From: Polyangiales bacterium
GTDB lineage: Bacteria > Myxococcota_A > Polyangia > Polyangiales > Ga0077539
DNA length: 64,000 nucleotides
Direction of reading: 5' to 3'
Assembly: GCA_046351515.1 (NCBI GenBank)
Contig: JAXLYJ010000005.1
Location: 50,892 to 114,891 of the forward strand
Position 1 is the stretch's first letter; the number at the start of each line of letters is the position of its first letter. The translations under genes were made by a program, and so were the position numbers. Below the pieces are notes generated by a model that was not told the DNA's origin, made no database searches, and saw only the letters and a list, made by a program, of their open reading frames with translations. Positions 5,032-64,000 of this stretch are shown here, one piece after another.

Positions 5032-6703
5032 TCAGTAGTACTGCTTGCGCTTGGCGCTCGAGAGGATGCCCATCATCTCGCGGTACTTCGCGATGGTCCT
5101 GCGCGCGATGATGATCTTCGACTGCTCTTCGAGCTTCTTGGCGATCGCCTCGTCCGAGAGCGGGTTCTTTGGGTCTTCTTCCGCGATGATCTTCTTGATC
5201 GCCTGCTTGACCGACTCGCTCGCGATGTCCTCGTCGGCCATGCGTCGGATCGAGCTGTTGAAGAAGTATTTGAGCTCGAAGATCCCGCGCGGCGTGTGGA
5301 CGTACTTGTTCGTCGTGACGCGCGAGATCGTGCTCTCGTGCATCCCGACGGTCTCGGCCACGTCGCGAAGGATCATGGGCTTGAGGTACTCGACGCCCTT
5401 CTCGAAGAACTCGTGCTGCTTCTCGACGATGCACTGCGTGACCTTGACGATCGTGCGCTGCCGCTGGTCGAGCGAGCGGACAAACCACCGCGCCGAGGCG
5501 AGCTTGTTCTGCACGAACTCCTTGGCCTTCGGGTCCTTCATCAACGCCTGCGCCTGCTCGACGTTGATCTTGAGCTTCGGCAGCCCGTCGTCGTTCGTCG
5601 TGACGGCGTACCCGTCCGAGGTCTTCACGACGTACACGTCGGGCGAGACGTACGGAGGATCTTCAGTGCTGAAGTTGCGACCCGGTCGCGGCTCGAGCGT
5701 GCCGATCAGCTTCGAGGCGTCGTACACGTCGTTGAGGTCGCACTTGAGGTCTTTCGCGATCGCCTGAAAATTGCGGCGCTCGATGTGCTGCAGGTGCTTG
5801 TCGATCACCTGCCAGACGATGGTCTCTTCGTCGTAGCCGAACGCCTCGGCTTGCACGAGCAAGCACTCGCGCAGGTCGCGTGAGGCGACGCCGACAGGGT
5901 CGAGCGACTGGATCAACCGCAGGACTTCTTCGGCGTCTTCGGGGTGCAGCCCGCTTCGCGCGCGAGGTCTTCGAGCGTGATCGTCTGCGCGCGCGGGACT
6001 TCTCGTTGGCGGCGATGTCCGCGGCCGAGAGGTTGGTGACCGGCTCTTCGGCCTTCTTCTTCTTCTTTTTGCCGTGCTCTTCGTCGTCGTCCGACTCGCT
6101 CGGCTCGTCCCACTGCGAGTGGCTCTCTTCGCGGTCGGCCTTCTTCTTCTTCTCGCGCTCCTTCTCGGGAGCGTCGCCGCGAAGCCGCAAGTAGCCGTTG
6201 TCGTCGAGGTTGTGCACGACGAGCATCGCGAAGGTCATCTCTTCGTTCGTGAGGTTCGAGAGACGAAGCTGGTCCATCAAGTGATCGGAGAGCGACGAGC
6301 GCGAGCTCAGCGTCGCTTCGAGCGAGGGCAGCTCTTCGCTCGACAAGCGGCCGCCGCCCGAGGGGACCGGCGCTTGATTGGCGTACGACTCGAGAAAGCG
6401 CTCCCAATACTCTTCTTGCTTGCTCTCGCTCGCCGCGCGCTTCTCTTCGTGGTTGTGCACCGCCTGCTCGCGGCGCTCTTCGAGCGCGGCGATGTCGTCG
6501 ATCGTCGGGGTCGAGTCGGCGTCCTTCGCGCGCGCCTCGCCCTCGGCAGCCTCGTCGAGAATCGGGTTCTCCGTGAGCTCTTCACGGATCTGATCGATCA
6601 GCTCGAGCCGAGACAGCTGGAGCAGTTTGATCGCCTGCTGCAGCTGCGGCGTCATCACGAGCTGCTGCGACATGTTCAGGCCGAGGCCGAGCTTCCCTTC
6701 CAT
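5032..6703 (-). CDS. rpoN: RNA polymerase sigma-54 factor
   Basis: N-terminal region I MEGKLGLGLNMSQQLVMTPQLQQAIKLLQLSRLEL, an acidic region II, then LIQSLDPVGVASRDLRECLLVQ and the C-terminal RpoN box ARRTIAKYREMMGI. Two single-base deletions near 5945 and 5990 split the gene between ORFs 5032..5916, 5913..6407 and 5663..7504. Confidence 0.9.
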
Positions 6704-22262: not shown

Positions 22263-22541
22263 CGAAGTTGCCGTGGAGTTGCAACAGCATGCCATGTGCC
22301 GCTGAGCGCCGCTCGAATCGCAGCAAAAACGCACGGTCGCTTCGGGCGTGGCTGACAACGTTGTTGGCGGAGCCGCGGCGCTCGAAGCAGTGGACAGAAT
22401 ACGACACTACGCGTGTGCGCGCGCGAGCATTAATAGTGGCCGACGGAAGGGGGCGATGGTACAGAGACGAACTCGCGATTGGCCTGAGATTCCTGTGGGT
22501 TTCTGGCGTTTTGGCCGGCGAGTGTGCGAACCGAGGCGACG

Positions 22542-25195
22542 ATGACAGACGAACGAAGCAACGCAGGGGAGAGCAGTGGCAGCGGCGCAGCGGCGCCCAT
22601 CCCTGTGGTGTTCGAAGAAGAAGTGCAGCGCAGCTACCTCGACTACGCGATGAGCGTGATCGTAGGCCGCGCGATCCCCGACGCGCGCGACGGGCTCAAG
22701 CCCGTGCATCGGCGGATCTTGTACACGATGGAGCAGCTGAACCTCGCGCCCGGCGGCAAGTTCGTGAAGTGCGCGCGCGTGGTCGGAGACGTGCTCGGAA
22801 AGTTTCACCCGCACGGCGACTCGAGCGTGTACGACGCGCTCGTCCGCATGGCGCAGGACTTCTCGATGCGCATGCCGCTCGTCGACGGCCAGGGAAACTT
22901 CGGCTCGGTCGAGGGTGATCCCGCCGCTGCGTATCGTTACACCGAGTGCAAGCTCACGCGGATCGCTGAAGAAGTCCTGCGCGACATCGACAAGGACACC
23001 GTGGACTTCTCGCCGAACTACGACGGGAGCACGGAGGAGCCCGATGTGCTTCCGGCGCGGTTTCCGAACCTGCTCGTGAACGGCACCAACGGCATCGCCG
23101 TGGGCATGGCGACGAACATTCCTCCGCACAACCTCACGGAGGTCATCGACGGGACGCTTCACGTCATCGACCACCCCGAGTGCAACGTCGAGGACCTGCT
23201 CCCGTTCGTGAAGGGCCCGGATTTTCCCACGGCGGCGTCGATCCTCGGCACCGAGGGCGTGCGCAAGGCGTACCTCACGGGGCGCGGGACGATCACGATG
23301 CGCGCGAAGGCCGACATCGAGACGTTCGGCAAGGACCGCGAGCGCATCGTCATCACCGAGATCCCCTATCAAGTGAACAGCGCGAAGCTGCTCGAGCACA
23401 TGGCCGAGCTCGTTCGCGAGAAGAAGATCGAGGGCGTCTCGACCTGCGCAACGAGAGCTCGCGCGAGGGCATGCGCATCGTCGTCGAGCTCAAGCGCGAC
23501 GCGGTCGCTCAAGTGGTCCTCAACGCGCTCTACAAGCAGACGCAGCTGCAAGAGAACTTCGGCTACATCGCGCTCGCGATCGTCAACGGTCAGCCGCGCG
23601 TGCTGGATTTGAAGCAGCTGCTCTCGGTGTTCATCGAGCACCGACGGGACGTCGTCACGCGTCGCACGCGCTACGAGCTTCGCAAGGCCGAAGGCGAGCG
23701 CGAGATCGTCCTCGGCTTGGGGATGGCGACGACCGAGATCGACCTCGTGATCGCCACGATCCGCAAATCGCCTGATCCCGAGGCGGCCAAAGAAGCGCTC
23801 ATGGCGCTGCCGCTCAAGGGGCTCGAAGAGTTCGTTCGTCGCGCGGGCAGGCCCGAGCACGAGATCGCCGAAGCCGCGAAGGTCACGGACTATCGGCTCA
23901 CCGAGCGTCAGGCGAAGGCCATCTTGGACATGCGCCTGGCCAAGCTCACGGGCCTCGAGCAAGAGCAGCTCGCGCAGGACTACGGCAAGCTCTCGGAGAT
24001 CATCGCGTGGCTCAAGAGCATCCTCGGCGACGAGGGCGTGCTGCTCGGCGTGATCAAGAAAGAGCTCACGGACATCCGCGAGAAGTACGGCGAGGCGCGA
24101 CGCACGTCGCTCGAGCTCATGGACGGAGAGATCTCGATGGCCGACCTCGTGCCCGAGCACGAGGTGGTCGTCACGCTCTCGCACAAGGGCTACATCAAGC
24201 GCACGTCGCTCAGCGATTATCGCGCGCAGAATCGCTCGGGTAAGGGCAGCTCGGGCATGGACGTGCGCGACGAAGACTGGGTGCACCAGATCTTCGTCTC
24301 GAGCTCGCACGACTCGATCTTGTTCCTCACGGACACGGGCAAGGCGTTTACGAAGAAGATCTACGAGCTGCCCGAAGCCGCGCGCGCCTCGCGCGGAAAG
24401 GCGATCGTGAACTTCCTCGGCCTCGCGGACAGCGAGCGCGTCGCGGTGGCGCTTCCCGTCAAAGAGTTCAAAGAGGGCTTGGACCTCGTCACGTGCTCGA
24501 AGAAGGGCCTCGTCAAGCGCACGGACCTCACGGCGTACGGCAGCATTCGTCAGACGGGCATCATCGGCGTGGCGATCGACGAGGGCGACGAGCTGCTCAC
24601 CGCCATCGTCGTCTCGCCCGAGCGCGAGGTGATCATCGGGACGCGCAAGGGCATGAGCATTCGCTTCGCCGCGAGCGAGATTCGTCAGGTCGGCCGCGAC
24701 TCGCGCGGCGTCAAGGGCATCGAGCTGCGCGAGGGCGACGCGGTCGTCTCGCTGCGCGTCGTCGAAGATCCCGCGACGCAGCAGGTGCTCGCGGTCTGCG
24801 AAAAGGGCTACGGAAAGCGCACCGAGAGCGCGGAGTTTCGCAGCCAGGGCCGCGGAGGACTCGGCATCATCGCGATCGACGCCTCCGAGCGAAACGGCGA
24901 CGTGGTGGACATCGTGCTCGTCCGCGAGGGCGATCAGCTCATGGTGGTCACGGACAAGGGCCAGATGCTGCGCACGTTCGTCTCGCAGGTGCGGCTCGCG
25001 GGCCGCAACACGCAGGGCGTTCGCATCATCGACGTCAACGAGGGCGAGAAGGTCGTCGCGATCGAGCGCGTCGAGGTCGTCACCGTGGAGGGCGAGCCGC
25101 GACCGAGCTTGAGCCCGACGGACTCCGCGGCTTCTGGTGATGCGGGCGCGCCGACGACGCCGGCAGAGCCGAGCGAACCGGCGACGGACGCTTGA
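22542..25195 (+). CDS. gyrA: DNA gyrase subunit A
   Basis: [26 protein letters not shown], active-site Tyr region, QRLTGLE-like motifs and C-terminal beta-pinwheel repeats. One frameshift near 23450 joins ORFs 22524..23612 and 23180..25195. Acidic C-terminal tail. Confidence 0.95.
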
Positions 25196-55063: not shown

Positions 55064-56022
55064 TGACGGACCTCGCACGCGCGACCGCGAGCGGCGCAGA
55101 CGACTCGGTCTTCGTTGGGCTCGAGCGCGCGGGCGCCGGGGCGATGGCCTCGGTGTTTCGCGGGACGTACCTGCGCTCGGGGCGGACGGTGGCGGTGAAG
55201 CGAGTGCTTCCGGCGCTGACGCACAACGAGCACATCACGCAGATGTTCGCCGACGAGTGTCGCGTGCACTCGACGCTCGATCACCCGAAGGTGGTGCGCT
55301 ACGTCACGCACGGGCGCGACGCAGACGGAGCCTTTCTCGCGCTCGAATGGGTGGACGGGACGAGCGCTCGATCGTTTGTCGATCCCGAGCGCAAGCTGAC
55401 GACGGGCGCGGCGGTGGCGATGGCGCTCGACGTGCTCGACGCGCTCGACGCCTTGCACCGAGGGCGCGCGGCGAAGGTGGGACGCAGCGCGATTCTTCAC
55501 CGCGACATCTCTCCGGCCAACGTGCTCGTGGGGGCCGATGGCTTCGCGCGCCTCGCGGATTTCGGCCTCGCGAGGGTCTTCTCGTTCGCGCGCACCACGC
55601 CCCCGGAACCACCGCTGGAAAGCTCGGCTACCTCCTCCCGAAGTCCTCGCGGGGCGCATGCACACGACGCGCGGCGATCTGTACGCGCTCGGCGTGGTGC
55701 TCTGGGAGGTCCTCGCGGGCGAGCGCTTGATGGCGCACGTGAGCGACGCTGCAGAGCGCGCGCCAAGGCCTTTGTGATCGAGCCGCGCCGTCCGCTCGTG
55801 AGCGTTCGCCCCACGGTTTCGCCGGCGATCGCCGCGGTCATCGACAGGGCGCTCTCGCTCGATCCGGCGCAGCGCTTCGCGAGCGCCGAGGCGATGGCCA
55901 GCGCGGTTCGCGAGGCGGTCAGCCGCGACGAGTGGTCCAAGGCGCGCGATCAGCTCGCGATGGCCGCGCGCGGCGGGCACGTGCGCCGCTCGCGTCGGCG
56001 CTCGACGCGCTCGGTGAACTGA
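55064..56022 (+). CDS. Ser/Thr protein kinase (frameshifted)
   Basis: RGTYLRSGRTVAVKRV, HRDISPANVLV, DFGLARV in ORF 54169..56022. The activation segment/APE region is in the +1 frame (ORF 55257: GTTAGKLGYLLP; ORF 55538: GDLYALGVVLWEVLAGE). Confidence 0.6.
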
Positions 56023-56063
56023 GTCGATCCCGCGTCGCGCGCAGGGCTCGCTCGGGCAGAGCG

Positions 56064-57961
56064 TCACTCGTCGAGGGCGAACTCGACGCGGCCGAGCGCT
56101 CCATCGGCGCTCACCACTCGAACGCGCACCGCCTGTCCGACGGTGAAGCTTCGGCGAGCGCCCTTCATGTGCGTCTCGCGCGCGTCGAGCGAGAACGGCC
56201 CTCCTTGAATCGTGTCGATCGGGATCGTCCCTTCGACGAACGAGGCGTCGAGCTGCGCGATGATCCCAAACGATCGCAGCCGCGTGATGCGCGCAGAGAA
56301 CTTCTGCCCGACGCGATCGGCCATGTACCGCGCGAGGATCATCTTGCGACGGTCGTTTTCAGCGCGCGTCGCGCCGCGAGCGCGCTCGTTGATGTGCCGC
56401 GCGAGCGCTTCGAGCGAGGGTCTCCGAGCGACCAGTCGCGCCGTCCTCGGAGGTATTGCTTGATCGTGCGGTGCACTTCGAAGTCCGCGTACCTGCGCAA
56501 CGGCGAGGTAAAATGCAGGTAGAGCGGCGCTGCGAGCCCGAAGTGCATCGAGGGCGTGACCTGATAGCGCGCCGGTCCCAGCGAGCGCAACAGCACCGCG
56601 CGGATCGCGGGCTCGTACGGAGAGCCGTCGATCTGCGCGTCGAAGGCCGCGAGCGACAGCGGGCTCAGCTTGGTCCCGAAGCCCGCCGCGTAGCCGAAGT
56701 TCTCGGCGATCTCGGCGAACTCGATCACCGCTTCTTCGCCAGGGATCTCGTGCACGCGCAAGAGCGACGGGACGCCGCGCTCGGTGAGCCATCGCGCGAT
56801 CGCCTCGTTGGCGGCGACCATGAAGCGCTCGATCATCACGTGCGCGCTGTTGGCCTTGTGCGCCTCGACCGCGCTCGCTTGTCCTGTCGCGGGATCGACG
56901 GTGATCTTCGCCTCGTCTTGCGCGATGCGAACGCCGCCGCGGCGCGCGCGAAACGCTCCCAATCGAGCGCTCGCGGCGCGAAACCACGGCATCGACCCGC
57001 GCACCTTGTCGACCGCCGGGCTCATCGCGCCCGAGTCGAGAAACGCCGCGCACTCGTCGTAGTCGAGCCTGGCGAACGAGCGGATCACCGACTCGTACAC
57101 GTCGACCGAGCTGACGTTGCCCTCGGGGTCGATGCGCATCTCGCAGGTGAGCGTGCGGCGATCGACCTCGGGGTGCAGTGAGAGGTGTCCCGATGAGAGC
57201 TCATCGGGCAGCATCGGCAGCGTGCGTCCCGCGAGGTACGTGCTCGTCGCGCGCGCGCGCGCTTCGCGGTCGAGCGCGGTGTCCTTCTCGATGAAGTCCG
57301 ACGGGTCCGCGATCGAGACGAACAGCCGCAGCGCTCCGTCGCGGTCCGCAGGAGCACAGAGATCGCGTCGTCGATGTCGCGCGTCACGGGCGCATCGACG
57401 GTCACCGTCGGGACCGCGCGCAGATCGCGCCGTCCTTCGAGCGAGTGCGGACGGCGGGCGAGGGCCTTGGCTTGCGCGAGCGCTTCGTCGCTCCAGTCGG
57501 TGAGGATGCGGTGCCGCGCGATCACGCGCGCGCGAGCGAGGGATCTTCGCCCGATCCCGTGCGCTTCTTCAGCTCGAGGCTCTGTCCGCGGATCGTGGCG
57601 ATCACGGTCTCGCCGGGCTCGACGTTTTGCCCGCGCGTGTCCAGCGGCCAGTCCGTGTTGCTCACCTCGCGGTCGACCTTCACGAACAGGGCGCCGCGGC
57701 GCGAGACCACTTCGCCGACGAGCTCGCTGCGCGGACGCTCGTAGAGCGTGAGGTCCGTGGCGCTCCAACGGCCGTCCTCTCCGCGCACGACGCACCCGGC
57801 GACGACGTCGTCCGAGAGAAAAGGATTGAGGGCCGGCGGCGCGATGAACGCGCGCAGGATGGACTTGGACTCTCCTCGCCATCCACTTCGAGAAAGCCGA
57901 AGCCCCTTGGATTCACAACGACGCGCCCCACCACGTCGCGTCGGTCTTGCATGTCACTCAT
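56064..57961 (-). CDS. RNase II/R-family 3'-5' exoribonuclease (cold-shock/OB N-terminus, RNB catalytic domain, C-terminal S1 domain); frameshifted
   Basis: N-terminus DVVGRVVVNPRGFGFLEVDGEE (OB fold) in ORF 57680..58063. RNB signature HFGLAAPLYLHFTSPLRRYADFEVHR in ORF 56339..57214. S1-like C-terminus FTVGQAVRVRVVSADGALGRVEFALDE in ORF 56064..57053. Confidence 0.7.
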
Positions 57962-58110
57962 TCGCCGCCGAGGGTGCGCACGAAGCGCGAAGAAGAAAAG
58001 CCCCTTCGCCCGCGGTCGATCGGCGATCGCCCACGGTCGGAGGGAGAAACGCCGAGAGATCACGGCCCCGCTCGAGCTCGATCGGGGCTGTGATTTCAGC
58101 GCTGGGTTGA

Positions 58111-59360
58111 TTACGTGGGCGCCTTCACCACGCCGATCGGGACGAGCTCGGTCACCACTTCGAGCAGGTCGCTTTGCGCCGCGATCACCGCGTCGACGTC
58201 TTTGTATCCGTGGCCGCGCTCGTCGAGCACGCCCGCGGGATCGTGCGTGACCAAGGTGATTCCCTTCTCGGTCATCTCGCGGAGCATCGACGCGGTGGCG
58301 TCGCGCTTGGCCGCTTCGGTCGCGTCCTTGTCGACGCGCGCGTAGCCTCCTTGTCGCGGAAGACCTCGCCGTTCTCGTCCTTCACGTACACCTTGGGCAT
58401 CATCTGCCCGCGGGACTTCTTGCGGCCCGCGCCGTGCGACACCGACGCGTGCGAGAGCGAGCAGCCCGTGCCGCGGCACAGAAAGCTCTTGGTCTCCATC
58501 GAGCCCGGGATCGTCACGTACGCGCCCGCCGGAGCGGACACTGCACCCTTTCGATGCACGTACACGTCGCGGCCATCCCAGCGCTCTTTCGACAAGAAGT
58601 TGTGGTGCGTCTGGACCACCATCGCGACCTCGTACGGACCGAGGACGTCGCCGATCGCGCGCTCGCACGCCGCTCGGATCAGCTCTCGGTTCGCCTCTGC
58701 GTATCGCAGGCAAAACGCTTGTTCTGCGAGGTAGCCGCGGCCCTCATCGCTGTCGACCGGCAAGAACGGAAACCCCTTCGGGTAGCTCGCGCCCAGGCGC
58801 TCGCACAGCTGTTCAGCGAGCGAGTGATAGTGACCGTTGACCGCCTGACCGAGGCCGCGCGATCCCGAGTGGACCATCACCCAGAGGTTTCCTTCGGAGT
58901 CCTTCTGCAGCTCGCAGAAGTGGTTTCCGCCGCCGAGCGTTCCGAGTTGACGCGAAGCGCGCGAGGCGTTCTTCGCGACGACCGGCTCGATCGAGTCGGT
59001 GAAGGACGGCATCGCCGTCGACTCGTTGTCGTTGATGAGCTTGCAGACCGCGTCGTTCACGCGGGCCAGGATCTTCGCGGCGATCGAGGGCGAGACGACC
59101 GCTGCGCGCAGCGACGTCTTCATCAAGATCATCCCGCAGCCGATGTCGCCGGAGATCACGTCGGGCACGATCAGGTTCTCCGTTCCGAACACCGTTCCGA
59201 TCGGAACTCCCTTTCCCGCGTGAGCGTCCGCCATCAACGCGAGCTCACCGACGATCGACGGCAGCTCGGCGATGCGCTCGATCTGCTCGATGGCGTTCGC
59301 GTCGAGCTCCTGCGCGAAGATTCGAACCGTCTTTCCGTTGGGCGTCGTGTGCAGCTTCAT
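58111..59360 (-). CDS. rtcB: RNA-splicing ligase RtcB (3'-phosphate/5'-OH RNA ligase)
   Basis: MADAHAGKGVPIG, GGNHFCEL, and the HGAGR active site with its conserved His in ORF 58272..59360. After a frameshift near 58350 the C-terminus YKDVDAVIAAQSDLLEVVTELVPIGVVKAP is in ORF 58111..58713. RBS GGAGGAAC. Confidence 0.9.
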
Positions 59361-59500
59361 GGTGTTCCTCCGTCACTCGTGGGTGACGCGGAGGACAACT
59401 TCACGATGCGTGCCGAGGCCGCGGGCACAGATTCTACACATCAAAGCGAGATGCCGTATTGTTTTGGATATAGCGAAGTATTCAAATGGATAGATGCGCC

Positions 59501-60111
59501 TCAGCGCACGCGCTCGACCGCGCCGTCGCGCACTCGCAGCACGCCGTCGCACCACGCGATGAGCTCTTCATCGTGCGTGGCGACGAGCGCCCCCGACGGC
59601 CGCTCGCGCAGCTCGTCGAAGAGCGATCTGCGCGCGTCTCGATCGAGCCCGTCGCTCGGCTCATCGAGCAGCCACCACGGGGGCTCTCGACGCGCGCCAT
59701 CAACAAGTGCGCTCGCTTGCGCTGTCCCAGAGAGAGCGTTCGGTACCGCTGCGCGCCGATGAGCTCGATCGTCGCGCGCGACCGTTCGTCCTGCGGAACC
59801 TCGCTTCGACGCAGCCCCGCGCACAGCTCGACGAGCTCGTTGACCGTCAGGTGCTCGGGATACGACGGCTCTTCGGGCACGATCGCGCATCGTCGCTGAA
59901 GCTCGTCACGATCGCGCGCGAGCGAGCGCCCGTCGATCTCGACCTCGCCGCCGCCGTGGTCGATCGCTCCGATGATCGCGCGCAGCAGCGTGGACTTGCC
60001 GCTTCCGTTGGCGCCGACCACCGCGAGCAGACCGCGGGGCCACTCGAGGCTCACCGAGTCGAGCACGAGCCGATGGCCCAACCGCACAGAGAAGTCTCGC
60101 ACTCGAATCAT
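59501..60111 (-). CDS. ABC transporter ATP-binding protein (CcmA-like, ~203 aa)
   Basis: Walker A GANGSGKST, signature LSLGQRKR, Walker B WLLDEPSDGLD, H-loop ATHD; across ORF 59482..61152 (N-terminal part) and 59501..59890. The ATG overlaps the permease stop (ATGA). Confidence 0.7.
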
Positions 60112-61152
60112 CGTCGCACCGAAGCCGCCAGCGCGAGCGCGACGAGCACGCACGCCGTGACGACCGACTGAGAGGGAGTGGCCACGAGCGCGAGGATCAC
60201 CGCCGCGATCGTGCAGAGCACCGCGGCGCCGCCCGCGTCGATCTCGCGCCGCGCGCACTGCTCGACGCACATCGCGACGGCGAGCCACTGCGCAGCGAAC
60301 GCGAGCGCGGCGAGCAGCGAAGCGCGAACGCCGAGAGGGCTCGCAGCGATGCTCGCGCAGCTCGCTCCGACGAGCGACGGCAGCGCCCACGTCGCGATGC
60401 GGCCTGCGCGTCGAGCGGTGGACCGTGCGCCGGGCTGCGTCGCGAGCACGAGCGAGAGCGACTGCTCGGACTCGCGAACGACCGTGACGATCGCGGCCGA
60501 CACCGCGCCAGAGGCCACGAGCAAGAGCACCGTCGCGAGGCTCGATTGCGCGGTCGGCGCGATGCGCGTGTTGAAGACGGCGATCGTGGACAAGAGCGTC
60601 GCTGCGAGGGGAGCGCCGCGGATCGCGCGAGCGGCGACGGGGCGACGCGCGCGGCGAAGCGGAGGTGGGCGACGAGCAGGCCGCTCGGCGAGGGCGCGCT
60701 GCGCGTGGGCGCGCTTCGAGCGCGCGGGCGATCGAGCGAAACGCGAGGGTCGCGAGGGCGGCGACGAGCGCGGCGAGAAGGCCCACGAGCGCTCCTTCGC
60801 CGCGCGCGAAGAAGGCGCCGACGATCGCGTGGGGAGCGAGCGTGGGGGCGGTGAGCGTCGCGAATCGGTCGAGCGACGAGAGCGGCAGCGCGCGAACGAA
60901 CGCGAGCTCGTCGCGCTCGAGCACGCGCGCGGCGCGGACGTGCACGACGGACCACAGGGCGAGGGCGAGGGCGGCGATCGCGGGGGTCGCGCGCAGGCCG
61001 CGAGTGATGTCGCGCGCGTCGAGCCCGTTGGGGCCGAGGAGCACTGCGCCGAACACGAGCAACGCGAGCCACAGCCCAGCGAGCTTTGCGATGACGGAGC
61101 GAGCGACGATCGAGGCGAGCGTGAAGCGCGCGCGGAGCGCGGGCGAGGGCAC
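60108..61152 (-). CDS. ABC transporter permease / polytopic membrane protein (frameshifted)
   Basis: Hydrophobic multi-TM translation from the GTG/ATG at 61152 (MPSPALRARFTLASIVARSVIAKLAGLWLALLVFGAVLL...). It continues in ORF 60108..60593 (MSTIAVF...LVALALAASVRR) and is translationally coupled to the ATPase. Confidence 0.45.
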
Positions 61153-61198
61153 GGCGGAGTAACGGGCGGAGGGCGGGGAGTGTTCCGAAAGGGAAAGA

Positions 61199-61332
61199 GG
61201 TTTTGTAGAGTGAGGGGACGGTGTTCAAAAGTTCATTTGTTGGTCTCAACGCGACTCAACGGCCCCTGCCACTGAGCCAAACTGAGACCAACAAATGAAC
61301 TTTTGAACACCGTCCCCTAGCTCTACAAAACC
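61199..61332. promoter_or_regulatory. 134-bp AT-rich element: two ~50-bp near-perfect inverted repeats (48/50) around a 34-bp spacer, in the rtcR / ABC-rtcB divergent intergenic region
   Basis: Left arm 61199-61248 ggttttgtagagtgaggggacggtgttcaaaagttcatttgttggtctca. Right arm 61283-61332 is its reverse complement except tga/cta. Each arm holds GTTCA-N3-GTTCA. The spacer carries TGGCAG-N5-GTTGA on the minus strand. GC ~42% against ~70% for the window. Confidence 0.6.
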
Positions 61333-61378
61333 CCCTCGGAACGCCGTCGCTCGTTGCGATACGCTGCCGCTCGCCGCG

Positions 61379-62953
61379 ATGGCCGAGCCCCGCGAGAGAG
61401 TGCTGATCAGCGTCGTCGGGCAGCGCTTCGACGCCCCCAAGCAATGGAGGCCCACGCTCGTCTGCACGATGCACCCCGAGGTCGTCGCGTTCGATCGCGT
61501 GGTGCTCATCGAGCAGCCCGGCGCCGAGGTCGTGACCGAGATGCTCATCCGAGACATCGAGCGCGCGAACAAGGGGCGCTCGATCGCGTGCGAGCGCGTC
61601 GCGATCGACCTGAAGAATCCCTGGTCGTTCGAGGAGGTCTACGCGAAGTTCTACGCGTTCGCTCGGGCGCGATCGTGGCGCGAGCGCGACGAGCACTACG
61701 TGCACATGACGACCGGGACGCACGTGATGCAGATCGTCTGGTACCTGCTCGTGAGCGAGCGCTTCGTCCCTGCGAAGCTCGTGCAGAGCGCGCCGCCGAA
61801 GGGACGGGACCGCGCGGATCTCGGCGCCCTCGACGTGGTGGACCTGGATCTGTCCCGCTATCCCTCGATCGCGCGGCAGCGACACGCGCAGCAGCTCGAG
61901 GGCGAGTCGCTGCTGAAAATGGGGATCGAGACGCGGTCGCCTGCGTACAACGCGGTGATCGAGCGGCTGCAGAGGGCGGCGTTGGGACCGGCCGTTCCGC
62001 TCTTGTTGTGGGGCGAGACCGGCGTGGGAAAGAGCGCCCTCGCACGCCGCGTGTACGCCCTGCGAAAACAGTCGCGCTCGATCGCGGGGCCGCTCGTCGA
62101 AGTGAACTGCGCCACGCTGCGCGGGACGCTGCGAGAGAGCGCCCTCTTCGGCCACAAGAAGGGCGCGTTCACCGGCGCAGACCGCGATCGAAAGGGCTAC
62201 CTGCGCGCGGCCCACGGCGGAATGCTCTTTCTCGACGAAGTCGCCGAACTCGGCCTCGAAGAGCAAGCCATCTTGCTCACCGCCATCGAAGAGGGCCGCT
62301 TCTATCCCTTGGGCGCCGACGAGCCCGAGCGCTCGCAGTTCGCCCTCGTCTGCGGAACCAACCGCGATCTGCGCGCCGAAGTCCGCGCTGGACGCTTTCG
62401 CGACGACCTGCTCGCGCGCATCAGCACCTGGTCCTTTCGCTTGCCCGCCCTGCGCGAGCGCCGCGAAGACATCGAGAGCAACGTCCGCTTCGAGCTCGAT
62501 CGCTTCACCGAGACGTACCGCTCGAACGCGCGCTTCTCTCGCCCCGCGCTCGCGAAGTACCTCGCGTTCGCCAAGAGCGACGAGGCGCGTTGGCCCCATA
62601 ATTTCAGGGACCTCTCGCAGAGCGTGCTTCGAATGGCCTCGTCCGCGAGCGAAGGGCTCATCGACGTCGACGACGTGGCGCGCGAGATCGCAACGCTGCT
62701 CGAAGCGTGGGGACCGGTCGCCGAGCTCGCCGTTCCTGCGCGCTCGCCGGAGGACCGCTCGCGCGATCGCGTCGATCAAGTGCTGGTCGAGACCGTGATC
62801 GCGGCGCTGCGACGTTCGAAGTCCCTCGCGGCCGCCGGACGTCTGCTGTTCGACGGTGAAGCGAAGGCTGGCCGATCGGTCAACTACTCGGACCGCGCGC
62901 GAAAGCTCTGCCTGCGGCTCGCGATCGATCCCGCTGCATATTTAGCAAGATGA
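61379..62953 (+). CDS. rtcR: sigma-54-dependent transcriptional activator RtcR (CARF-type N-terminal domain, AAA+ sigma-54 interaction domain, C-terminal HTH)
   Basis: Collinear with E. coli RtcR along its whole length: KQWRPTL, HMTTGTHVMQIVW, LDLSRYPSIA, GETGVGKSALARR (Walker A), VEVNCATLRG, GAFTGA (GAFTGA loop), ARISTWSFRLPALRERREDIE, AKSLAAAGRLLF. Confidence 0.9.
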   Translation: MAEPRERVLISVVGQRFDAPKQWRPTLVCTMHPEVVAFDRVVLIEQPGAEVVTEMLIRDIERANKGRSIACERVAIDLKNPWSFEEVYAKFYAFARARSWRERDEHYVHMTTGTHVMQIVWYLLVSERFVPAKLVQSAPPKGRDRADLGALDVVDLDLSRYPSIARQRHAQQLEGESLLKMGIETRSPAYNAVIERLQRAALGPAVPLLLWGETGVGKSALARRVYALRKQSRSIAGPLVEVNCATLRGTLRESALFGHKKGAFTGADRDRKGYLRAAHGGMLFLDEVAELGLEEQAILLTAIEEGRFYPLGADEPERSQFALVCGTNRDLRAEVRAGRFRDDLLARISTWSFRLPALRERREDIESNVRFELDRFTETYRSNARFSRPALAKYLAFAKSDEARWPHNFRDLSQSVLRMASSASEGLIDVDDVAREIATLLEAWGPVAELAVPARSPEDRSRDRVDQVLVETVIAALRRSKSLAAAGRLLFDGEAKAGRSVNYSDRARKLCLRLAIDPAAYLAR

Positions 62954-62960
62954 CCGCGGG

Positions 62961-64000
62961 TCAGAAAACGTGAAACGGGTCGCGGTCGCGGTCGAAATCG
63001 CGAACTCGACGCCGTGCAGCGCCTCGGCGAGGCGATCCTGAGCACGCGCAGCGTGGCGCGCTCGGAGTTCGAGTGGAGGGTCATGATGATCGTGGTGTTG
63101 GCGTTGGCGGCGCGAAGCGCGTCGTGGTGGCGCATCTCCCCGAGCACGAAGAGGTCGGCCTTCGCCCGCAGGACCGAAGAGAGCATTTCGCCGGTCGCGC
63201 CCGCGCCGACAGCGGCGGTGTGCACGGTCCTCTCGGTCGGTCCTGCGACGAGCAGGTGATCGACGCCGAGCGCGGATTTGAGCCGCGAGACGATGGTGGC
63301 GACCGAGGCGGGCTCAGTGAGCGGGCCGATGCGACCGAAGCCCTTGTGCTCGCTCACCGCGGCGAGCCGCACGAGGTCGAACGCGGGAGTCTCGTACGGG
63401 TGTGACGCTCGGTGGGCGCGAAGGACGGCGTCGAGCTTGTGCACGGGAACCAGCGTTTCGAGCCGGATTTCGGCCGCGCGCTCGAGTTGCCCTGCCTTGC
63501 CCACGACGGGGTTGGTGCTGTCGGGGGCGCCGAAGAACGTTCCCTCGCCGGGGGTTCGAAACGAGCACTGCGAGTACTCGCCGATGCGCCCTGCGCCCGC
63601 TTCGAACAGCGCGTTCGCGACGGCGTCGACGCTCTCTTGCGGGACGAAGGTGACGAGCTTGAAGTGCGTGTCCTTGGGCTGCTGCGGGTCGAGTCCCGCG
63701 CGCTTGTCGCGGTCGATCCCCACCGCGTCCGCCAGAACGTCGTTCGTCCCGCCTTCGGCCGCGTCGAGCGCGGTGTGCGGAGAGTAGATGGCGATGCGGT
63801 CTCGCACGGCGTCGAAGGCGATCGAGCCTCGCGTGACGCGCGAGACGGGCTTGAAGATCGGCGGGTGATAGGCGAGCACGGCGCTCGCCGCCATCGCGCG
63901 CGCTTGTTCGTAGACCGCCGGCGTCAGGTCGATCGCGAGCAACACTCGCGAGAGCATGGCGTCCGGGTCTCCGACGAGCAGGCCGACGTTGTCCCAGTCA
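62961..64000 (-). CDS. Nif3-family (YbgI/YqfO, dinuclear metal centre) protein; 5' end beyond window end; frameshifted near the 3' end
   Basis: WDNVGLLVGDPDAMLSRVLLAIDLT (read across the window end), AYHPPIFKP, IAIYSPHTALDAAEGGTNDVLA, MRHHDALRA...TLHSNSER match the Nif3/NGG1p-interacting-factor-3 fold. Confidence 0.65.

Follow-up and report, generated by a model that had tools for sequence, protein, structure and literature searches.

An rtcA-less RtcR/RtcB locus of a Polyangiales bacterium beside an RNase II/R-family gene and an orphan ABC gene pair

Do genes that lie side by side around an RNA ligase also work together? This question is raised by positions 56,064 to 62,953 of a 64,000-nucleotide (64-kb) stretch of DNA from a Polyangiales bacterium (assembly GCA_046351515.1, contig JAXLYJ010000005.1), referred to below as the window. 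Here, the gene for the RNA repair regulator RtcR is divergent from four genes, which encode a presumed ATP-binding cassette (ABC) membrane protein, an ABC ATPase, the RNA ligase RtcB, and an exoribonuclease. The earlier note, made from the DNA letters, had read them as one CARF/sigma-54-controlled module of transporter, ligase, and exonuclease, a proposal that neither the position of the promoter nor the gene layouts of relatives support. What the locus represents is a modest variant of the known Rtc system, without rtcA and with lineage-specific neighbors, and not a new kind of module. We consider it reasonably probable that an RtcR/RtcB locus without rtcA lies next to a housekeeping RNase gene, carries an acquired ABC pair, and is organized in three transcription units, so that the genes are neighbors and not one co-regulated machine.

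The region has a G+C content of about 68%. The order, strands, and spacings of its genes had been given correctly, and the genes are as follows.

61379-62953, plus strand: rtcR, an intact open reading frame (ORF) of 524 amino acids (aa) and the sole intact gene of the set in the window.
60108-61152, minus strand: membrane protein gene, the presumed ABC membrane partner, about 346 to 348 aa in orthologs, two frameshifts.
59501-60111, minus strand: ABC ATPase gene, about 203 aa, its ATG overlapping the TGA of the upstream gene (ATGA), one frameshift.
58111-59360, minus strand: rtcB, the 3'-phosphate/5'-OH RNA ligase gene, 416 aa in orthologs, one frameshift.
56064-57961, minus strand: OB-RNB-S1 exoribonuclease gene of the RNase II/R family (RNB gene below), about 628 to 632 aa in orthologs, four frameshifts.

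Spacers of 140 bp and 149 bp separate the ATPase gene from rtcB and rtcB from the RNB gene, respectively, and rtcR lies 1.9 kb from rtcB with the ABC pair in between. We compared the locus with 15 related loci of uncultured Myxococcales; the P0004 locus was available as a gene list only, with no DNA. L numbers below designate individual loci.

An RtcR/RtcB locus with a noncanonical gene order, as had been claimed, is supported by Pfam matches and by the catalytic motifs of RtcB. RtcR matched the Pfam families RtcR (8e-44) and Sigma54_activat (1e-47) as well as the PADLOC RtcR profile (3.6e-174), and the NCBIfam model RNA_repair_RtcR aligned over positions 3 to 522 of 530 with 572.7 bits, which is under its cut-off of 650. 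The protein comprises a CARF-like N-terminal domain, a sigma-54 AAA+ domain, and a C-terminal DNA-binding region, and the GAFTGA motif was seen in its translation. It shares 80 to 82% of its amino acids with the counterparts in L001 and L085, and the rtcR region is 93.6% identical to that of L092 at the nucleotide level. RtcB matched Pfam RtcB (6e-75, and 7e-10 for a separate C-terminal piece), and the stitched window protein showed 95.9% aa identity to its L089 ortholog. Its catalytic motifs DIGCGM, GGGNHF, HSGSRG, HHN, and SHGAGR all align with E. coli RtcB, although the two proteins are only about 31 to 33% identical (tblastn) and the window RtcB carries a C-terminal insertion of about 45 residues.

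The E. coli locus with divergent rtcR and rtcBA is a partial match. Shared with it are the divergent rtcR with its CARF-like, AAA+ (GAFTGA), and helix-turn-helix parts, the complete catalytic motifs of RtcB, and a -24/-12-type element with GATAT-rich sequence ahead of rtcB. In contrast to E. coli, the -12 element reads TGA instead of TGC, the ABC pair parts rtcR from the rtcB promoter, and rtcA is missing. With E. coli RtcA as the tblastn query, no rtcA was found in the 64-kb window, as the earlier note had stated, or in L001 to L004, L029, and L085, while the same query does detect rtcA in 18 other RtcR loci. Two further loci, L024 and L028, encode full-length RtcR homologs (41 to 43% identity) and gave no rtcB match at E<1e-5 in their 10-kb flanks; therefore, RtcR-like regulators with no rtcB in the vicinity exist.

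Whether a single transcript could run through all four minus-strand genes depends on where the promoter-like elements lie. Three features are relevant here.

59399-59415, minus strand: sigma-54-like -24/-12 element, CGGCACGCATCGTGAAG, with canonical GG/TG spacing and TGA, not TGC, at -12.
59454-59484, minus strand: AT-rich block that contains GATAT/GATAC-type motifs and may serve RtcR as an upstream activating sequence.
5035-6690, minus strand: rpoN, the sigma-54 gene, also within the window at a distance of about 55 kb from rtcR, and split near 6200.

Sigma-54 is the factor required by RtcR. The sigma-54-like element and the AT-rich block both stand in the ATPase-rtcB gap of the window, downstream of the ABC genes, a position that does not support a single sigma-54 transcript covering permease through RNase. 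The pattern YGGCAY-N4-CGTGMA is found directly upstream of rtcB with a core that is invariant in all nine aligned loci, and it occurs once in the 64-kb window, at 59400-59414. The AT-rich block is kept upstream of rtcB in eight of these nine loci; the fetched L004 stretch reaches its 3' edge only. The E. coli rtcB promoter is CTGGCACGACGGTTGCA, and GATAT-type motifs are present further upstream there too. The canonical sigma-54 pattern TGGCAC-N4-6-TTGCW had no match in the window and two matches when one mismatch was allowed, neither of them near the locus. Sigma-70 and terminator scans of the locus gave results at or below chance. The rtcB 5' leader also contains an inverted repeat, CGTCAC-CCACGA-GTGACG (59371-59388, minus strand), which follows the sigma-54-like element and precedes the start codon. 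The repeat is common to L089, L092, L001, and L087; the L085 sequence differs there, and a hairpin is still possible.

The gene layouts of relatives provided the second line of evidence. L091 has DAGK, an M54 peptidase, a desaturase, and NIF3, followed by RNB, a kinase, and Metallophos, and holds neither rtcR nor rtcB. L083, whose RNB is 70% identical, likewise keeps RNB and the kinase and has no rtc genes. Divergent rtcR and rtcB lie between NIF3 and RNB in L085, L092, and the P0004 locus, and L002 to L004 show the same divergent pair followed by RNB, in each case with no ABC pair. In L029, an unrelated convergent gene follows rtcB, and RNB is absent. Six relatives besides L092, each with both genes on the contig, have divergent rtcR and rtcB without the ABC pair. 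The pair itself was found in two groups, one comprising the window, L089, and L090 and the other L001, L087, and L088. The members of the second group have two or three opposite-strand genes between the ATPase gene and rtcB. These intervening genes (L001 4834-8264, L087 11657-13393) had no Pfam match, and one of them encodes a protein of about 346 aa. L092 is the closest relative (92 to 93% nucleotide identity). The ABC pair is absent from it, and a degenerate remnant of about 100 nucleotides of the ATPase 3' end is left (L092 5352-5447, matching window 59628-59509). This remnant is preceded by about 97 nucleotides that are unmatched in the window, and the whole segment (L092 5255-5447) resembles a deletion scar. 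The layouts suggest nested insertions into a conserved NIF3/RNB-kinase backbone, in which the interval between NIF3 and RNB acts as a hot spot for insertion.

The linkage of the ABC genes and the RNase gene to rtcR and rtcB, on which the proposal of a single module depended, is thus largely not conserved; this applies fully to co-transcription of the ABC pair and substantially to the RNase. The two sets of neighbors are considered in turn.

The membrane protein of the ABC pair had no Pfam or NCBIfam family, and only four clusters of homologs were found among 5.8 billion proteins. All of these homologs adjoin rtcR and lie upstream of rtcB wherever the contig extends that far. The five occurrences are each directly divergent from rtcR, with an intergenic region of 57 to 65 bp. 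An AF2 model of the protein, built from a four-sequence alignment, was all-helical with a pLDDT of 59, and its best Foldseek match in the PDB had an E value of 0.37, which is not significant. The name permease is presumed from hydrophobic helices and the ATGA coupling, the two features behind it. The ATPase matched Pfam ABC_tran (2.6e-16 for the window piece and 1.4e-20 for L001), and Walker A, the ABC signature, and Walker B are all present, with the motifs GANGSGKST, LSLGQRKR, and LLDEPSDGLD read in the translations, the last one past the frameshift. Its NCBIfam matches were generic and none reached a cut-off (CcmA, 83 bits versus 131.6). An ABC ATPase with translational coupling had thus been recognized rightly, but the labels "ABC2-type permease" and "CcmA-like" were not borne out, there being no family match for the former and a score below the cut-off for the latter. 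The pair resembles two-gene CcmA/DrrA-like ABC exporters in its short ATPase (203 aa) with all motifs, the translation of which is coupled to that of a polytopic, helical membrane protein. It differs from them in a membrane subunit with no Pfam or NCBIfam family or solved fold at useful confidence, in an ATPase at no equivalog cut-off, and in the restriction of the family to a handful of Myxococcales metagenome-assembled genomes (MAGs).

The genomes that bear the pair are those with a mutual RtcB identity of at least 90%, and its distribution fits one gain followed by one loss. The ratio of nonsynonymous to synonymous divergence (dN/dS) of the membrane protein gene was 0.3 to 0.65, and its synonymous divergence (dS) exceeded the rtcB value for the same two genomes several-fold. 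Between L001 and L087, dS amounted to 0.54 for the membrane protein gene, 0.29 for the ATPase gene, and 0.11 for rtcB; recombination could account for this contrast, and so could a constraint on the ABC segment that is of a very different strength.

Two noncoding features lie upstream of the pair.

61171-61187, minus strand: CGGAAYAY motif, 35 to 38 nucleotides before the membrane protein start, which may act as promoter or operator for the ABC pair but not for rtcB.
61199-61332, no strand assigned: near-perfect palindrome of 134 bp, with 65-nucleotide arms and a 4-nucleotide loop, between rtcR and the membrane protein gene.

The window, L001, L087/L088, L089, and L090 all have the CGGAAYAY motif, and its distance to the start codon is the same in each. 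A sigma-54 promoter for the ABC pair was considered and dropped, as GGAACAC...GC is properly spaced only in the window, L089, and L090 and not in L001/L087. The palindrome, which folds with -110 kcal/mol (z = -16), separates the motif from rtcR in the window and not from the ABC pair. It had no match in 90 fetched loci, and Rfam returned only sub-threshold, miRNA-like noise for it. A multicopy miniature inverted-repeat transposable element was rejected, since the 32-mer of the palindrome occurs within the window in the two arms only and has no copy in the fetched loci.

Could the pair nevertheless be a true Rtc accessory, co-regulated with the ligase, that exports a ribotoxic compound or carries the RtcR ligand? 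Its constant place beside rtcR, in five of five known occurrences, speaks for this, as do the intact ORFs in four other genomes and a dN/dS below 1. However, a single vertically inherited insertion in a sub-clade suffices to explain the pattern, and there is no independent co-occurrence. Since such an insertion predicts the same exclusive position at rtcR, that position is not independent evidence of function. Furthermore, the pair sits upstream of the conserved rtcB promoter, its own upstream motif differs from that promoter, opposite-strand genes intervene before rtcB in L001/L087/L088, and L092 has lost the pair while rtcR, rtcB, and RNB remain intact. Its evolution is fast and weakly constrained, with the dN/dS of the permease gene reaching the upper value given above. 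We therefore regard an accessory role as distinctly unlikely.

The exoribonuclease, predicted by the earlier note to carry OB and S1 domains, was borne out by Pfam, with RNB (2e-80) and S1 on the window pieces and OB_RNB, RNB (3e-89), and S1 on the intact L001 ortholog. The protein clears the NCBIfam VacB/RNase II superfamily model (372.9 bits versus 368.6) and stays under the equivalog cut-offs for RNase_R (454 versus 598 bits) and RNase II (204 versus 542 and 176 versus 642 bits). With RNase R/RNase II (VacB), it shares the OB-RNB-S1 architecture, the superfamily match, and the acidic motif VTRDIDDAISV. Unlike these enzymes, it lacks the N-terminal 60 or so residues of the RNase R model, falls below both equivalog cut-offs, and belongs to a Myxococcota-wide subgroup of about 630 aa. 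The gene is the positional ortholog of an RNase II/R-family gene of that length found across Myxococcota, with orthologs 55 to 60% identical, and it is not linked to rtcB in L081 to L084, which include Myxococcus stipitatus and a Polyangiales MAG. Two features occupy the space between rtcB and the RNB gene.

57968-58004, minus strand: block upstream of the RNB gene, GGGGCTTTTCTT...CGTGCGCACCCTCGG, which includes the palindrome GTGCGCAC; the RNB gene's own upstream region.
58056-58097, minus strand: GC-rich hairpin just past the rtcB stop, common to L092 and not found in remoter relatives; a putative terminator.

The upstream block (CTTTTCT...GCGCGCGAACGTGCGCACGCTC) is kept in seven of eight clade loci and also in L091, where no rtcB precedes RNB. 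Since L091 keeps both RNB and this block without rtc genes, the RNB gene is best regarded as part of the backbone, equipped with an upstream element of its own.

A repair-or-degrade arrangement has nonetheless to be weighed, in which RtcR-driven transcription reads through into the RNB gene, and broken RNAs are either religated by RtcB or cleared by the exonuclease. It would be akin to the Rsr/Y-RNA/PNPase link of other rtc operons. RtcR of Salmonella is activated by tRNA fragments that PNPase breaks down, so that exonucleolytic decay is biologically linked to Rtc signaling, and in Deinococcus, Rsr and Y RNA tether PNPase (PMC7790460). The Salmonella rsr-yrlBA-rtcBA operon and the Deinococcus Rsr/Y-RNA/PNPase particle are thus a precedent for coupling Rtc to 3'-5' RNA decay (PMC7790460). 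The adjacency of rtcB and RNB with a gap of 75 to 150 nucleotides in at least nine loci, over an RNB identity of about 72 to 98%, would fit such an arrangement. However, the locus holds neither a Ro60/Rsr gene nor a Y RNA (Rfam), and its exonuclease is a neighboring RNB-family backbone gene that is also present without rtcR and rtcB. Against co-regulation stand the pan-Myxococcota distribution of this gene, its separation from rtcB in L081 to L084, the L091 backbone with RNB and the same upstream block but no rtcR or rtcB, the L029 locus with divergent rtcR and rtcB but no RNB, and the GC-rich stem followed by a T-rich tract between rtcB and RNB. By analogy with the Rsr systems, a repair-or-degrade role for RNB is reasonable yet unsupported, and we rate it as unlikely. 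No paper on a link between RtcB and an RNB-domain nuclease was found in a search that did not cover the main survey of RNA-repair operon diversity.

The earlier note had also sensed a defense-island flavor in the locus. This was not supported: PADLOC recognized RtcR as a CARF-family entry, gave a generic similarity for the ATPase, and had no entry matching RtcB, RNB, or the membrane protein, and it yielded no match to a catalogued anti-phage defense system or dedicated effector. An Rfam scan of positions 55900-63100 produced only sub-threshold noise for Y RNAs and other families.

The identity and order of the four minus-strand genes had been read correctly; however, these genes are not intact ORFs, as eight frameshifts had been overlooked. 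Codon-level alignment to the orthologs, all of which are intact, showed that the eight are specific to the window.

~60694 and ~60611, minus strand: membrane protein gene, both -1.
~59681, minus strand: ATPase gene, -1, just ahead of the Walker B motif LLDEPSDGLD.
~58351, minus strand: rtcB, -1, GGG to GG.
~57876, ~57534, ~57353, and ~56420, minus strand: RNB gene, by alignment to orthologs.

Each indel is either the loss of 1 base beside a run of G/C or a +2 change within a CG repeat. One RNB indel, first read from distant relatives as +2 at ~57870, is given by the close relative L092 as -1 at ~57876. Frame breaks are not confined to the locus, and the window contains at least 18 frameshifting indels in total. 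In gyrA (22488-25192, plus strand), which is broken near 23445, DNA_topoisoIV positions 1-254 are in a different frame from positions 252-431 and the C-terminal propeller. In rpoN, broken near 6200, Sigma54_AID and CBD 2-49 are in one frame and CBD 58-182 and DBD in another. Further breaks were seen at ~17950, ~33340, ~35800, and ~42570, in an EamA transporter gene, pspA, an unannotated gene (versus L004), and cstA. The Ser/Thr kinase gene downstream of RNB carries indels of -1, -1, and +2 at 55602, 55637, and 55763, and its frame is restored after about 160 garbled nucleotides. At the NIF3 3' end, two -1 indels (62993 and 63038) make the NIF3 ORF spuriously overlap the last part of rtcR by 70 nucleotides.

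Given the local density of frameshifts, we considered that the four genes might be true pseudogenes of an operon that is decaying while rtcR survives. Eight frameshifts fall within 5.1 kb, versus none in about 9.5 kb of syntenic genes on the flanks (in a comparison with L085), and rtcR is intact. However, gyrA and rpoN, which are essential or core genes, are disrupted by the same types of indels, the kinase and NIF3 genes outside the operon are broken as well, the pieces carry no in-frame stops, and the errors are context specific. The stitched RtcB, for which the identity to L089 was given above, has a branch no longer than that of the L089 protein, and the divergence of RNB is no greater than that of its orthologs. 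Locus-specific pseudogenization was therefore dropped as very improbable. As far as the alignments allow us to judge, the eight frameshifts are most likely assembly errors and not gene decay, because similar indels split gyrA, rpoN, pspA, the EamA gene, and cstA and because the stitched RtcB and RNB show no excess divergence. The noisy stretch ignores operon boundaries, since the flanking kinase and NIF3 genes are also hit.

Several observations weigh against the reading of three separate units at an rtcA-less RtcR/RtcB locus. The position of all membrane protein homologs between rtcR and rtcB is also what a functional link predicts. The RNB gene follows rtcB on the same strand, directly adjacent and with the short gap described above, in at least nine loci with RNB identity down to about 72%, and co-expression by read-through from rtcB into RNB is possible. 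The -12 element is TGA, not the near-invariant TGC, in eight of the nine loci, and sigma-54 dependence is therefore presumed. Activation of E. coli RtcR requires the binding of RtcA and RtcB (PMC9650030); thus, a system lacking rtcA may be regulated differently. Finally, 11 indels fall in 55.6-60.7 kb (5.1 kb) and none in the roughly 9.5 kb of flanking syntenic genes, and this high local density is unexplained beyond local low quality.

With these points taken into account, we still favor the three-unit reading, under which the locus would fill a variable slot between the backbone genes NIF3 and the RNase II/R-family exoribonuclease gene. RtcR would sense damaged RNA through its CARF-like domain. 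In Salmonella, the CARF domain binds tRNA halves with a 2',3'-cyclic phosphate end (PMC7790460), and by analogy, tRNA fragments with such ends may be the ligand here. The regulator is predicted to bind the AT-rich block and to activate sigma-54 RNA polymerase at the element at 59399-59415, and RtcB, with all its catalytic motifs kept, would then seal broken RNA. RNB would be the ordinary housekeeping copy of this lineage, expressed from its own upstream element and at most reached by read-through from rtcB. The ABC pair would represent a lineage-restricted, fast-evolving two-gene cassette with its own conserved upstream motif that was inserted a single time, in the space from rtcR to the rtcB promoter; it is probably dispensable, because the closest relative L092 lost it. 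The three putative units would thus be rtcR, the ABC pair, and rtcB transcribed from the RtcR/sigma-54-type promoter with RNB following. We hold it to be quite improbable that RtcR has recruited, in place of RtcA, a read-through RNase R-like exonuclease for triage together with the orphan ABC system. If this were true, the ABC system could serve to export a compound that damages ribosomes or tRNAs, or to control the ligand of the CARF domain, and the locus would constitute a new three-function RNA damage response.

The frameshift load is a caution on the quality of the assembly, and the orphan ABC pair constitutes a small curiosity. For specialists, the locus is of value for the regulatory logic of a system without rtcA, given the dependence of E. 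coli RtcR on RtcA and RtcB (PMC9650030), and for a clade-conserved sigma-54-like promoter with a nonconsensus -12 (TGA). If the three-unit reading holds, the adjacency of ligase, nuclease, and transporter genes in a single genome can mimic a "system" that comparative genomics dissolves. It would also mean that RtcR-RtcB units without RtcA occur in Myxococcota and that rtcR and rtcB come and go as a unit in a conserved backbone.

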